DNA of 63,663 nucleotides, filler included, from Globobulimina sp. (lineage: Eukaryota), in assembly GCA_003354225.1 (NCBI GenBank). It is 34 parts of 34 records of this genome, joined end to end, with 100 filler letters (N's around TTAATTAATTAA, not from the genome) between each part and the next. Parts side by side here need not be neighbours in the genome. Positions count along the whole stretch, not along the records: positions 3,755 to 5,531 come from PIVH01012069.1; 33 more parts are not named here. One strand, given 5' to 3'. The notes beneath the pieces are model-generated. The model did not search any database. It saw only the letters and a program-made list of their open reading frames with translations, and was not told the DNA's origin. The position numbers were made by a program, and so were the translations under genes. Positions 3,200 to 44,921 of the stretch are shown here, one piece after another. The stretch's first letter is position 1. Every line of letters begins with the position of its first letter.

Positions 3200-3580
3200 C
3201 TAACATTTCAGATGGCGATGAAGACAAAGGCTTTACTCAACACTCAACTGTTTCTTTTATAGATTCTTTACAGTTTAGATAACAAAAATCCCGTTATTGT
3301 TATCATTGTGGACTTCTCGTCGACTTTCTCTCTTCATTAATGAAACTGTCATGTGAAACAATTGACTCAGATGCAGAGAGAAATCGAGCAAGTAAATCGC
3401 CGAGAAAAGATAGCTGAAGCTGAAGGCCAAACAACAGACAGAAGACTGGAAACGAGAAAAAATGGAAATCATCAGTCCACCACTTCAGGAATACCCCCAG
3501 ATCTTATAACTAACACGTCCCACCATCTGCACACTTGCCTTCGTCAATCGACCCCTCATAGGTGGTCCGATCGTTGAAGG

Positions 3581-3609
<29 letters not shown>
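3200..3609 (+). mobile_element. Probable 3' end of a retroposed (LINE/SINE-like) element with terminal stem-loop and poly(A)
   Basis: Hairpin 3538-3580 (CCTTCG..ATCG / CGAT..GAAGG) directly followed by A29 (3581-3609); 5' boundary unknown. Confidence 0.5.
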
Positions 3610-3611
<2 letters not shown>

Positions 3612-3911
3612 TGAATGTTTTATAACACGCTTTATATACGAGTACGGCTGACATNNNNNNNNNNNNNNNNNNNNNNNNNNNNNNNNNNNNNNNNNNNNTT
3701 AATTAATTAANNNNNNNNNNNNNNNNNNNNNNNNNNNNNNNNNNNNNNNNNNNNGCTGCTGCTGACAAAGGCATATGCTTTCGATAACGAATAGGTGTAT
3801 TATTATGAGCGGAATAGCGCTCTTTGTTCAAGTCCGAATCAACAACATTTATTCTTTCGGACTTTATCGGACGTTGCGGATTTACTGAGTAGTGTTTTGA
3901 CTTACTTAGGT

Positions 3912-5315
3912 CTAATAAAAATCCTCCGAATCGTTATCGTTGGCTTCCTCCGTATCGGTAGCGATAACCTTCGAATCCTTAATGTCTAAACTTTTAATAT
4001 CAATTTCATGGATTCGATGGTATCGATTGTTACCATTATCGTTGCCATTACGCTGAGGCCGTGGCTGACGCGGTGGTCGCTCCTTAAATGCTTCTTTCTC
4101 TTTATCGTTGTGATAGAATTTGCATTTTATTCCATAACGGCAGCCTTTACCATGTCTGCATTTTGGAAGATATGGCTGTTTATATAGGGGTTTCTGTGGC
4201 TGTTTACGAGGTCTAAATCGAGGATTCCTTTCTAACGATCCTTGGAATTTGCCACTAAACCTATTATTTAATTGATTTACCTCGGCTCGCAATTGAAGTA
4301 ATTCCTTTTCATGCTCTACGTCCATCCGATGATCAACGTAGTTATTTATGGCATTAATACGGTGTGTGGCTCCTATGGAATCCAAATAAGTTTCCTGCTC
4401 CACAAATTTAATCAAAATCAGCTCTAATTGTTCCATTGTAATGGCCGGAGTATTAAAGGTATTCACTGCTTTATCGATAACGCGGCTCCGTACCTCTTTG
4501 CCAAGGCCTTTAATAAAATGCTCCGCTGCCTCATAAGAACCAATATTTTGATATACAAATCCGTTGGCAGTCTGCACTCTGATTTCAATGGTTAATCTCT
4601 GCAGCAATTCTTTATATGATTCTAAATATAATTTAATTGATTTGCTACTTTGCGTACTTGCTTGAATAGCACGCTTGTAATTAATTACTTGATTCAATTT
4701 GCCATATTTCGATTTTAATGTTGTCCAAATTAATGCTAATTTGTCCTCCACAGGAATCTGTGCACTAAGATCTAAATCTTTTGACTGTAACCATTTATAC
4801 TGCTTTTCGGCCAAAATCTTTCCATTCATTATCAATTTTAATAACATGGCTGCATTGATATCATTATACATACAATATTTATTGATATGCAATTCAAAAT
4901 GATTTATATTCTCTTCCGCTTCACCTTTAAATTTAAACGGAATATTCGTGATCGCTAATTGTGCCAATGCATTCTCGATCTGACGGCTTGTATTATTCGC
5001 CATATTATTTCGTTCGTTTCCACGGTTTCGTGGATCAAATTCAATTATTTCTTTCTCCTCTTCTTCATCATTGTGATTCACTAAAAAATGATCAATGATT
5101 ATAATTGCATCCTCCATCAACTCTAAAAAATCTGCTTCATTGTCGATAATAATTTTGTCGGTATCTCCATTCATCAAATATTCGAGACGAATGATAACGG
5201 CAAAATCGAATTTGGCAATAATTTGATCTTTAAATGCCTCAAAACTACGTAGCGAGTCTGGAGTGAACCTAATTCTTCTTGTTTGATTTCCTGATTTTAT
5301 CTTAAACCAAGTCAT
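3912..5315 (-). CDS. Gag-like protein: PB1 domain, capsid-like region, CCCH zinc finger
   Basis: N-terminal FKIKSGNQTRRIRF...LEYLMNGDTDKIIIDNEADF (PB1); FKFKGEAEENINHFELHI (retrotransposon gag-like); CRHGKGCRYGIKCKFYH (4110-4160); intronless. Confidence 0.75.
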   Translation of the reverse strand: MTWFKIKSGNQTRRIRFTPDSLRSFEAFKDQIIAKFDFAVIIRLEYLMNGDTDKIIIDNEADFLELMEDAIIIIDHFLVNHNDEEEEKEIIEFDPRNRGNERNNMANNTSRQIENALAQLAITNIPFKFKGEAEENINHFELHINKYCMYNDINAAMLLKLIMNGKILAEKQYKWLQSKDLDLSAQIPVEDKLALIWTTLKSKYGKLNQVINYKRAIQASTQSSKSIKLYLESYKELLQRLTIEIRVQTANGFVYQNIGSYEAAEHFIKGLGKEVRSRVIDKAVNTFNTPAITMEQLELILIKFVEQETYLDSIGATHRINAINNYVDHRMDVEHEKELLQLRAEVNQLNNRFSGKFQGSLERNPRFRPRKQPQKPLYKQPYLPKCRHGKGCRYGIKCKFYHNDKEKEAFKERPPRQPRPQRNGNDNGNNRYHRIHEIDIKSLDIKDSKVIATDTEEANDNDSEDFY

Positions 5316-5431
5316 TTTAGCTATATACTAAATAAAATATATATGCAAATGAAGGTTTCGTCGAATTATTTTCTTCACGAATATAATGGAATAAGTTTCC
5401 TAGTCGGCTGTTAATTGATATTGGTCGTTTC

Positions 5432-5449
5432 TTTCGGGTGGAAGCGCCA
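5432..5449 (-). promoter_or_regulatory. Putative tRNA primer-binding site
   Basis: TGGCGC... begins 1 nt after a CA dinucleotide, about 120 nt upstream of the gag ATG. Confidence 0.6.
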
Positions 5450-5631
5450 ATGACTTATGTTGTTGTTTTAGAGGATAAGAGAAGAAGTAAAGAGTTTTAA
5501 TTTAAGTTTAAATAATACTGAGTTGAGTGACNNNNNNNNNNNNNNNNNNNNNNNNNNNNNNNNNNNNNNNNNNNNTTAATTAATTAANNNNNNNNNNNNN
5601 NNNNNNNNNNNNNNNNNNNNNNNNNNNNNNN

Positions 5632-9238: not shown

Positions 9239-9399
9239 ATACTAATCTTTTGACTCTGTGGACGGATTAATAATACTTTGACATNNNNNNNNNNNNNNNN
9301 NNNNNNNNNNNNNNNNNNNNNNNNNNNNTTAATTAATTAANNNNNNNNNNNNNNNNNNNNNNNNNNNNNNNNNNNNNNNNNNNNCGCCTGGCTCAAATC

Positions 9400-10964
9400 A
9401 TGGCCAAAATCATGAATATGTTCCTCAAGCAGAAAATACTCCATTTGCTTATTCGGTGCCTCGCACCAGCGGATGCTGTTGCAATGCATAACTCAGTTGA
9501 GAACAGAATGTGGGTCTCCTTTAAAAACGGAGTGTACGATATCACGGATTATTTGCAGAAACATGTTGGTGGCCCAAAATATATTGAATTAGTGGCCGGA
9601 GGCAGATTAGAATCGTTTTGGAGTTCATTTAACTTTCATTTAAACGATAGTGACATACAGCATTTATTGGAACAATATCGTATCGGTGATTTGAGGATGT
9701 CTGATCAGATAGCTTTAAACGATGATAATTTGCAACAATTTGAATTTGCAAATGAGCCATTTGCGGAACGACCTTATGACAAATTAATAGTTATGAGAGA
9801 TAATCCATTTTTAAGTGAAGCAAAAAACGAGTTATTGGGAGATTCCTTTATCACAGAAAATGAATTATTTTATACCAGAAACCATTTCCCTGTTCCAATT
9901 GCATTAAATGAAGCAAATTACAAATTAGATTTACATCTTAATATTGGCACAAATATAGATTTTACTGAAATGAATGATAAATGGGATGATGTAAACTGTG
10001 ATGCTTCGTTATCTTTGAATGACATTAAAAATAAATATGAGAATGTCGAGCTTATTGCAGCATTGCAATGCAGTGGAAATAGAGGATATGCATTGAGGTA
10101 CCACCTATTTTTAAACTCAATTTACTTTTACAACAAAATTACAAAAACACTTAAAGAGACCCATTAGGTTTAAAACATACATTGTGCCAAAATGGATTTA
10201 TATCCAATGCACATTGGAAAGGAGTAAGAATTCGAGATATCTTAATTGATAATGGATATGATGCGAATGATAAAAAATTTGATAAATATAAATATATTAC
10301 TTTTTATGCCTATGATACAGATGTCAGTACATTGCATTATGCGATGAGCACTCCGATTGCACACATTATGAACAAGTCAAATGATTGTTTACTGGCTTTC
10401 GAAATGAACGGAAAACCTTTGCCAAAAGATCATGGCTACCCATTAAGAGTATTATTTCCTGGCATTGCCGGCTGTCGATCGGTCAAATGGTTGGCCAAAA
10501 TGCAATTAACTGAAAGCGAAGTGAATAGTCCATGGCAAAAGGTAAGCTACAAACCATTTAAATATAAGCTCTATGATATGCCAATCACCTCAGTTATAAC
10601 CAGACCAATGGATGGGGATAAATTGAAGCAGTCAGATAATAATATTGTGAGTGTGAAAGGGTTTGCATGGAGTGGTGGAGGGAGAGGCATTGTTCGTGTC
10701 CAATTGAGTGTGGACGGCGGTGATAATTGGAAAGTTTGCGAATTGCAGCAAACTGAGCAAGAAAGAAATAGAGCGTGGTCTTGGACACTATGGAATGTTG
10801 ATATTGATGCGAAGGATATTAAAAGAGACAGAAACGGAAAGTGTAGCATTGTGTGCAGAGCAACTGACTCATCATTTAACTCACAGCCAAAGGATGTCAA
10901 AGATGTTTTGAATGGTACCATGTATGTAAATAATTCATGGCATTCAGTGAATGTTCAGATATGA
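9400..10964 (+). CDS. SUOX: Sulfite oxidase family protein (cytochrome b5, Moco and dimerisation domains); intron 10098-10156
   Basis: GVYDITDYLQKHVGG (b5), FYTRNHFPVP, LQCSGNR (Mo-ligand Cys), DHGYPLRV..PGIAGCRSVKWL, GFAWSGGGRGI; the 59-nt intron joins the two ORFs in frame. Confidence 0.92.
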
Positions 10965-43820: not shown

Positions 43821-44105
43821 CCGCAACAGAAATCTCAGTGTCTGATTGATGATCCAAGATACCTAAATTGTTTATTTTTTTGCTCCTATATGTTTAATAT
43901 ACTTGTTACTGTCACCATGGAGCTCTTGTCACACTGACAGTGATTCAATTGACTTATGAAATGGCCAATAACGAACAACAAATTAACAGAGTTTTTCATT
44001 TTGCAAGTAGTCTACTTTAGTTTACAATGGTTTGTTGACTTATTGAACCATCTTACATTTATAAACCATACACATACACATATACTCAATATCATATTCA
44101 TACAG

Positions 44106-44921
44106 TCAGTGGCCTGTCCTTGGTCCGATTATGGGTGTCATGAACCAGTGCCATATGCAGACTTCAAAACGCACGTTGAATCAGACTTTTTTAATCACGC
44201 ATCGATGAGATTTGATTTTGTCGCCAATAAACGCAGCGAATGGCTCGAACAATATGAAGACGACAAAAAAGAAATTCACAACAAATTGGAAGAAATCAAT
44301 GATTTAAACATCAAAGAAAACTTAAAAAACGTAAAATTTTTAGCCTCTTTGGTTGAAAATCAATGCAAAGAAATCCAAGAATTAAAAAATGAAAATAAAC
44401 AAATTGAATACTTAAAAAAAGAGATATCGCTTTTAAAAGAAATAAATAAATCTCAAAACCAACAAATTGCGAAATTAATGACTTTAAATGATAAATTTCT
44501 ATCTTTATCCCAACGCATCGGCAAAACGGAACAAATGGAGAGCGATTCGCTTTTACGCGTACAGTCTTTGGAAGCAATTAACTCTGAAATAACAATAAAA
44601 CTACACCACGTCGACCAAATTGCCTCTCGCGTCTCGCTACAAAGCGCAGATTTCAACGAAGCCGACCTCACCAACCAAGACATGAGCGGGCAAGATTTAT
44701 CTGGCTCTTCTTTTAAAAATGCAAAATTGTGCGGTACAAACTTTACAAACAGCAATCTAAGTAATGCAGATTTTACCTCTGCAGATTTGAGCAATGCCAA
44801 TCTGTCCAATGCGAATCTGAGCAATGCCAACTTGGAAGGCAGCATTTTGAATGGCTGTCAGTTGCGAAACACTGTGGTGAAAGGCGTGAAATTATCCAAT
44901 GTCGATTTGAAAAATATGGAT
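44106..44921 (+). CDS. TRAF-type zinc finger, coiled coil and pentapeptide-repeat protein, partial
   Basis: CPWSDYGC...HVESDFFNH, then A(D/N)L(S/T)x pentapeptide repeats. Confidence 0.85.

Follow-up and report, generated by a model that had tools for sequence, protein, structure and literature searches.

The window analysed here is a stretch of 63,663 nt from Globobulimina sp. (GenBank assembly GCA_003354225.1), made up of separate contigs, one of which carries an intact open reading frame (ORF) at 3912-5315 on the minus strand. The frame runs from ATG to TAG and encodes a protein of 467 amino acids (aa) that joins, in this order, an N-terminal PB1-fold domain, a retroelement capsid (CA) fold and a CCCH zinc finger. 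This architecture is supported by Pfam, by AlphaFold2 models compared with Foldseek, and by conservation across a family of relatives, and a Gag architecture of this kind is real and, apparently, so far undescribed. An earlier interpretation made without database searches, referred to below as the sequence-only reading, had taken 3912-5315 for a retrotransposon gag gene with a captured PB1 domain. The coding region that it proposed stands as an intact frame, to which we can add the minus strand, left unstated at the time.

Domains of the 467-aa protein

A library-wide phmmer search over 1.84 billion representatives matched 29 proteins at E<=1e-3, of which 17 reached <=1e-10 and 7 reached <=1e-30. 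The two strongest matches were at E 2.7e-52 (39% identity) and 7.1e-52. The family alignment used throughout (A1) has 28 rows, two phmmer hits that matched the finger alone having been left out. Most of the relatives have lengths of 350-560 aa and align from their own N-termini; identity to the window protein is 17-39%, and some members are truncated. The N-terminal domain is retained in 21 of the 28 rows. Some of the rows without it look N-terminally truncated, and in one case the truncation is apparent: P0006 begins at residue 144 of P0007, to which it is 65% identical. Judged from the aligned proteins, the conservation of the architecture in the family is not due to chance. Prokaryote genomes yielded no relatives, whether scanned with the window protein alone or with a smaller alignment (A3). 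A word-indexed protein search with the window protein gave no match among 7294 candidates, and the same kind of search with the A1 profile gave P0029 as its sole match among 7999; these blanks carry little weight, because library-wide phmmer recovered 29 relatives.

The AlphaFold2 model of the whole ORF, built on A1, has a mean predicted local distance difference test (pLDDT) score of 81.3 and is disordered at residues 90-95, 329-332, 355-380 and 422-465. Residues 1-80 are modelled at pLDDT >90 with the topology b1-b2-a1-b3-b4-a2-b5 (b, strand; a, helix). In Foldseek against the PDB, PB1 domains made up 26 of the 35 matches listed and took ranks 1-3 and 5-12, with top probabilities of 1.00; here and below, matches were classed by reading their descriptions. 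The top PB1 structures were those of NBR1 (2bkf; E 5.9e-3, target TM-score (TMt) 0.73), MEKK3 and Par6 (TMt 0.74). The other nine listed matches comprised three capsids, namely dArc1, Arc and, at rank 4, Copia 8vvw_A (probability 0.99), and six others that were mostly ubiquitin-like. Pfam places PB1 (PF00564) at residues 3-70 of the window protein (E 3.1e-4, 21.1 bits vs a cut-off of 23.6), reports it at E<=1 in 4 of the 28 A1 members, and scores one relative, P0001, above the cut-off (25.4 vs 23.6 bits). The N-terminal PB1 features described in the sequence-only reading are therefore borne out by the Pfam match, by the relative above the cut-off, by the confident model and by the top structural matches.

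PB1 domains pair with one another and join scaffolds; their best-known settings are autophagy receptors, polarity complexes and auxin signalling. In type A, an acidic OPCA motif follows a conserved tyrosine, type B has a lysine on b1 that is aided by arginines on b2, and type-AB domains, such as that of p62, polymerise front-to-back. The window domain has a basic b2 strand (R14, R16) together with K35, a tyrosine at position 46, and an acidic OPCA-like patch formed by D51, E60, D62, E65 and D69. These positions are largely kept across the 21 domain-bearing rows: lysine or arginine stands at R14 in 19, at R16 in 19 and at K35 in 18, Y46 is tyrosine in 18, and aspartate or glutamate is found at positions 51, 60, 62, 65 and 69 in 12, 11, 16, 17 and 17 rows, respectively. 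An acidic and a basic patch on one domain, the basic one lying on b2, would fit a pairing module, although they are no proof of one. A complex prediction for two copies of residues 1-88, in which the family alignment was unused, scored 0.00, the mark being 0.32, and is evidence neither for nor against pairing.

In the middle of the protein, residues 120-320 of the full-length model are all-helical at pLDDT >90, and a separate model of residues 100-330 reached a pLDDT of 91.4 and a predicted TM-score (pTM) of 0.76. When residues 100-330 were searched against the PDB with Foldseek, 36 of the 38 listed matches were retroelement or retroviral capsids, the two exceptions being a Plasmodium adhesin and MarE. 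The capsids included those of Copia (probability 0.99), dArc1 (TMt 0.57), PNMA2 (0.57), Drt2, which derives from the C-terminal domain (CTD) of the Ty1 CA (0.67), and the PEG10 CA-CTD (0.65), with Arc, MOAP1 and the CA proteins of human and simian immunodeficiency viruses (HIV, SIV), bovine leukaemia virus (BLV) and human T-lymphotropic virus (HTLV) as further matches. Among the viral models of BFVD, a retroviral Gag came out on top (E 2.1e-3, probability 1.00), with the ORF1 of a fungal metavirus and coat proteins of caulimovirids also at the head of the list; a herpesvirus protein at rank 4 is off-target. The Pfam family Retrotrans_gag (PF03732) falls on residues 199-243 of the window protein with E 0.25 and 12.0 bits vs a cut-off of 24.1. 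P0004 and P0005 pass this cut-off with 30.0 and 26.2 bits, respectively, and the family is reported at E<=1 in 17 of the 28 A1 members. The capsid-like middle segment had been proposed on features of the primary structure; in the predicted structure a two-lobed, all-alpha CA fold, with an N-terminal domain (NTD) and a CTD, is present in residues 100-330.

At the nucleocapsid position, a regular-expression search located the motif C-x5-C-x5-C-x3-H at residues 386-402 (pLDDT 86-96), and a conserved E-x3-F extends the finger to about residue 410. The exact spacing recurs in 15 of the 28 A1 rows, and the finger is confirmed as it had been described. When residues 378-415 were compared with PDB sequences, the finger of Regnase-1 (ZC3H12A) was the best match (E 4.8e-5, 26.5 bits), ahead of TTP-type fingers, and the top five PDB sequence matches of the family profile were to ZC3H12A, ZC3H12C and Roquin-1 (E 2.5e-4). 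Several Pfam CCCH-finger families were reported on the window protein at E-values from 0.015 to 10. No PIN/NYN nuclease or ROQ domain was matched by Pfam at E<=10 in the ORF; since the nuclease domain is absent, the likeness to Regnase is confined to the finger and the protein is no Regnase. The final 114 residues hold 14 K, 12 R, 10 P, 9 N and 9 D, in keeping with the R/P/N-rich, nucleocapsid-like tail noted earlier.

The same earlier interpretation held that the CCCH finger stands instead of the usual CCHC knuckle. This is true of the window ORF, in which the knuckle pattern C-x2-C-x4-H-x4-C has no match, but it does not extend to the family as a whole: CCHC knuckles occur in 3 of the 28 rows, alone in P0018 and together with a CCCH finger in P0020 and P0025. 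With CCHC only, CCHC plus CCCH, and CCCH only within one family, the nucleocapsid zinc module is evidently open to exchange or supplementation. A separate observation concerns P0024, a protein of 255 aa without a Gag part, which has two copies of the extended module (C-x5-C-x5-C-x3-H and then E-x3-F). Because P0024 lies outside the Gag family, the finger module is not limited to that family; P0024 is perhaps another mobile-element ORF. The positions of these domains and of the flanking features discussed below are collected in Table 1.

Table 1. Features of the contig that holds the gag-like gene, in window coordinates
Feature	Position	Strand	Basis or remark
Single 1777-nt contig with the gag-like gene (third of 34)	3755..5531	no strand	Rest of the window unrelated
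Gag-like ORF, 467 aa	3912..5315	-	ATG to TAG; 29 phmmer relatives at E<=1e-3
PB1-fold domain, residues 1-80	5076..5315	-	Pfam, AlphaFold2, Foldseek, conservation over 21 rows
Acidic N-rich linker (low confidence at about residues 90-95), then long helix, residues 98-123, leading into the capsid	4944..5075	-	AlphaFold2 model
CA-like, all-helical, two-lobed region, residues 125-330	4326..4943	-	AlphaFold2, Foldseek, Pfam Retrotrans_gag in relatives
Helix 333-353, then disordered basic proline-rich linker 355-384	4164..4325	-	pLDDT <50 at 355-380
CCCH finger C-x5-C-x5-C-x3-H, residues 386-402, at the nucleocapsid position	4110..4160	-	Regular expression, PDB sequence match, relatives
Disordered C-terminal tail, R/P/N-rich then acidic, ending D-F-Y	3915..4070	-	AlphaFold2, composition
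T5 run at the gag stop	3917..3921	-	GAT TTT TAT TAG in the gag frame
Open -1 frame relative to gag, 59 codons, candidate pol start	3755..3933	-	Frame scan, shuffles
Predicted RNA hairpin about 50 nt past the gag stop	3832..3862	-	Folding energy vs shuffles
Candidate primer-binding site (PBS)-like motif, TGG-led 19-mer	5431..5449	-	One base past CA (dinucleotide); 116 nt upstream of the ATG

Retrotransposon gag or host gene

The window consists of 34 contigs of 1774-1777 nt each, ordered by size and joined by 33 identical linkers of 100 nt, each made of 44 N, TTAATTAATTAA and a further 44 N (at 1778-1877, 3655-3754, 5532-5631 and so on). The sequences that flank 3755-5531 in the window are therefore adjacent to the gene in no genome, and any feature that crosses a linker, or is read from 'neighbouring' genes, is unsafe. 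The contig itself stops 157 nt past the gag stop and 216 nt ahead of the ATG. The element, including any pol or long terminal repeats (LTRs), is seen on 3755-5531 only.

Within these bounds the -1 frame is the sole sign of pol. It meets no stop over 59 codons, starting 7 codons ahead of the gag stop and continuing to the end of the contig, and the zero and +1 frames downstream of gag run into stops at once. Inside gag the same -1 frame contains 53 stops in 467 codons, with a longest open run of 30 codons, and when the 179-nt tail was shuffled 20,000 times by mononucleotide, 384 of the shuffles (about 2%) were free of stops. BLASTP of the 59-aa peptide against the family gave nothing meaningful (best E 0.61). 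The last residue of the gag product may also bear on this point: phenylalanine, or phenylalanine and one further residue, closes 11 of the 28 A1 rows and is usually preceded by an acidic residue or N, which hints at a constrained gag terminus, for instance one constrained by an entry site into the pol frame. On the other side of the gene, the PBS-like 19-mer begins one base past a CA dinucleotide, as a PBS does after the end of an LTR, and is a candidate motif; ARAGORN found no tRNA genes in the window with which to compare it. The hairpin of Table 1 lies inside the open -1 frame; the 116-nt stretch that contains it has a folding energy of -23.4 kcal/mol (z -2.62), a stability equalled by 1 of 200 shuffles. 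We considered this hairpin as a stimulator of -1 frameshifting and rejected it, because it lies about 50 nt beyond the T-run, too far for the classic type.

Two relatives add to the signs of retroelement kinship, which are the open -1 frame, the CCHC knuckles of three family members and the divergence of P0018 from P0021. P0018 and P0021 are identical at 341 of their first 342 residues and unrelated afterwards; they are either a pair of copies, of which one has decayed, or alternative gene models for a single element. P0018 continues in frame for 705 aa, past two CCHC knuckles and into a stretch with D-I-G-A. D-I-G-A is similar to the retropepsin motif, but the tail has no Pfam protease match at E<=10 and no PDB sequence match, and it is not counted as evidence.

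We suggest that 3912-5315 is, on balance, probably the gag (ORF1) of an LTR-retrotransposon lineage whose Gag combines a PB1-fold domain, CA and a Regnase-type CCCH finger and whose pol would be expressed from the -1 frame. As regards the sequence-only reading, the three-module Gag architecture has held up in Pfam, in AlphaFold2 with Foldseek and in the family, but full membership in an LTR element is not established, the open -1 frame being its sole positive sign, and the roles that it proposed for PB1 in polymerisation, condensates or the engagement of autophagy receptors stay putative.

Several observations weigh against the retrotransposon reading or against the domain assignments on which it draws. 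The Pfam scores of the window protein for PB1, Retrotrans_gag and zf-CCCH are each under the curated cut-offs, and the best Foldseek E-values are modest, at 5.9e-3 for PB1 and 2.3e-2 for CA, with none at <=1e-3 against the PDB. The viral models gave none at that level either, and what supports the two folds is the consistency of the match lists, high model confidence and the agreement with Pfam. No PB1 or capsid chain is among the 12 PDB sequence matches of the A1 profile at E<=10, and conservation on b1 is poor at K5 and K7, with lysine or arginine in 7 and 6 of the 21 rows, respectively. The 59-aa peptide of the -1 frame matches no Pfam family. A slippery site had been proposed at the end of gag and was not recovered, as the T5 run contains no canonical X XXY YYZ heptamer. 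No protease, reverse transcriptase, RNase H or integrase was found at E<=1e-5 in the 32 other long ORFs of the window, the gag contig itself ending 157 nt past the stop. There is no second copy of the gene among the 34 contigs, no LTR pair is visible and no repeat is shared by the two ends of contig 3755-5531. A word-indexed search of 7486 candidates, proteins of 1235-3525 aa, yielded no fused Gag-Pol relatives, which is weak evidence.

Some of these points are what one would expect of a domesticated, stand-alone host gene of the Arc/PNMA/PEG10 type, derived from a gag and no longer mobile, in which PB1 would have been gained as a means of connecting a capsid-like protein to PB1 scaffolds of the host. 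The ORF is intact, nearly all relatives are likewise stand-alone proteins of 350-560 aa, no pol is seen in the window ORFs or in the search of longer proteins, and the domesticated capsids Arc, dArc1, PNMA2, PEG10, MOAP1 and Drt2 are all among the structural matches. Against domestication, the -1 frame stays open across and past the gag stop. The family is also diverse, at 17-39% identity to the window protein and with truncated members, it includes the nearly identical and then diverging P0018 and P0021, and its zinc-finger content differs from member to member. Moreover, the 1.8-kb contig breaks off at either end, which is common for repeats in assemblies, and it may itself belong to a repeat. 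We consider domestication unlikely, and continue to favour the gag of an LTR retrotransposon.

Both the retrotransposon and the domesticated-gene readings are compatible with a further alternative, which concerns the N-terminal domain: it might be a generic ubiquitin-like beta-grasp (RA, UBL or CIDE-N-like) that serves as a tag or another adaptor and is no working front-to-back PB1. The below-threshold Pfam score of the window protein and the four members of 28 with PB1 at E<=1 would agree with this, as would the poorly conserved b1 lysine and the presence of DREP3 (CIDE-N), Afadin RA1, ubiquitin, NEDD8 and BAG1 at lower Foldseek ranks. Yet the Foldseek list is dominated by PB1 domains from its first rank on (26 of 35 listed, with ranks 1-3 and 5-12), PB1 is the sole beta-grasp family that Pfam reports, and the family has kept basic residues on b2, Y46 and the acidic patch where a type-AB PB1 is expected to have them. 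A generic beta-grasp is, in our estimation, distinctly unlikely. That a host PB1 exon was accidentally joined to a gag fragment by the assembly or by a gene model is scarcely credible: a short contig in a window made of fragments speaks for it, but the PB1 domain and the capsid share one unbroken ORF and occur in the same order in 21 of 28 independent relatives.

If 3912-5315 is the gag of an LTR retrotransposon, its product would consist of three folded modules linked by disordered segments. The PB1-fold domain would take the place of the matrix-like or unstructured region of other Gags, the two-lobed, all-helical capsid domain would form the shell of the particle, and the basic proline-rich linker and the Regnase/Roquin-type CCCH finger at the nucleocapsid position would most likely bind the RNA of the element. 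In the solved capsids of Ty3, Copia and dArc1, the N-terminus of the CA-NTD faces the exterior and the C-terminus the interior. Lying upstream of the CA-NTD, PB1 would thus sit on the outer face of the shell, and the finger would share the interior with the RNA. Electrostatic front-to-back contacts between PB1 domains would be driven by the basic b2 strand (R14/R16, together with K35) and the acidic OPCA-like patch, either from Gag to Gag, concentrating Gag for assembly, or from Gag to a PB1 scaffold of the host. Ribosomes would shift into the -1 frame close to the T-run at the end of gag and so translate pol.

A bolder version of this scheme is improbable. In it, a type-AB PB1 would have replaced the usual Gag N-terminus and would polymerise front-to-back like p62/NBR1 filaments, so that assembly might be nucleated in PB1 condensates or, instead, Gag might co-polymerise with PB1-bearing autophagy receptors or polarity scaffolds of the host and so escape selective autophagy or be carried to the germline. 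A finger akin to those of Regnase and Roquin, RNA-decay proteins of the host, would at the same time have been turned into a genome-packaging module.

Comparison with known systems

The protein resembles the Gags of LTR retrotransposons (PF03732; Ty3/gypsy, Copia/Ty1) in its two-lobed, all-helical CA, in the zinc module C-terminal to CA, in the overlapping -1 frame after its stop and in the CCHC knuckles that some relatives keep. It differs from them in its PB1-fold N-terminus, in the C-x5-C-x5-C-x3-H finger with no CCHC knuckle, and in a PF03732 score far under the cut-off (12 vs 24.1 bits). With the domesticated Arc/dArc1, PNMA2, PEG10, MOAP1 and Drt2 it shares the CA fold and the stand-alone ORF, but none of these turned up with a PB1 domain in the literature searched. 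The N-terminal domain is like the PB1 domains of NBR1, p62-type receptors, Par6/aPKC, MEKK2/3-MEK5, p40/p67phox and ARF/Aux-IAA in fold and topology (TMt up to 0.74) and in combining basic residues with an acidic OPCA-like patch on one domain. In contrast, identity to these domains is 10-20%, the context is that of a Gag, and the basic residues of the window family are on b2, whereas the hallmark lysine of PB1 is on b1. The finger has the same Cys/His spacing as those of Regnase-1 (ZC3H12A), ZC3H12C and Roquin-1, with strong local similarity, but it follows a capsid domain and is accompanied by no PIN/NYN nuclease or ROQ.

The nearest precedent for PB1 on a transposon-derived protein is found in plants. 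PMC8616336 describes MUSTANG MUG7 and MUG8 of angiosperms as domesticated Mutator-like element (MULE) transposases with a PB1 domain, states that PB1 is 'usually not associated with TEs' (transposable elements), and attributes the gain in MUG7/MUG8 probably to transduplication. Unlike the window protein, these are domesticated and derive from the transposase of a DNA transposon (PMC8616336). For LTR elements, bdelloid rotifers offer a precedent for the uptake of host-like modules: according to PMC5408684, Juno, Vesta, TelKA and Mag acquired modules such as dUTPase, DEDDy and GDSL, and the bdelloid gags have a CX2CX4HX4C knuckle in all except Vesta1b; the main text leaves PB1 and CCCH unmentioned. 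Because Vesta1b lacks a knuckle (PMC5408684), the missing CCHC knuckle does not set the window Gag apart from every known Gag.

In one open-access library, judged by titles and abstract openings, we found no report of a PB1-bearing Gag and none of a CCCH-bearing Gag; the CCCH matches concern host restriction factors. The N-terminal regions of Gag determine where and how retroelement particles assemble, and a PB1 domain conserved at the head of a Gag family suggests a route to particle assembly or to host engagement for which we found no report. The protein is small and folds confidently in the model, which makes these ideas directly testable at the bench.

Other contigs in the window

The window is AT-rich (G+C about 26-39% per 2-kb window), as in an AT-rich eukaryote, and a Pfam scan of the long ORFs found BTB, protein kinase, WD40 and MFS genes, so that its contigs look eukaryotic. 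Amid these eukaryote-like contigs, contig 24 carries a bacterial-type pentapeptide-repeat ORF at 43953-44921 on the plus strand (Pfam E 1.3e-22), which could be contamination or a transferred gene. On contig 6 a sulfite-oxidase-type gene (9385-10961, plus strand) is composed of a cytochrome-b5 ORF and a molybdenum-cofactor (Mo-co) oxidoreductase ORF in different frames, which abut at about 10155-10182; the change of frame there is consistent with a very short intron. Contig 2, which lacks long ORFs and exceeds the adjoining contigs of the window in G+C content, contains a run of about 35 T at about 3580-3610 on the minus strand.

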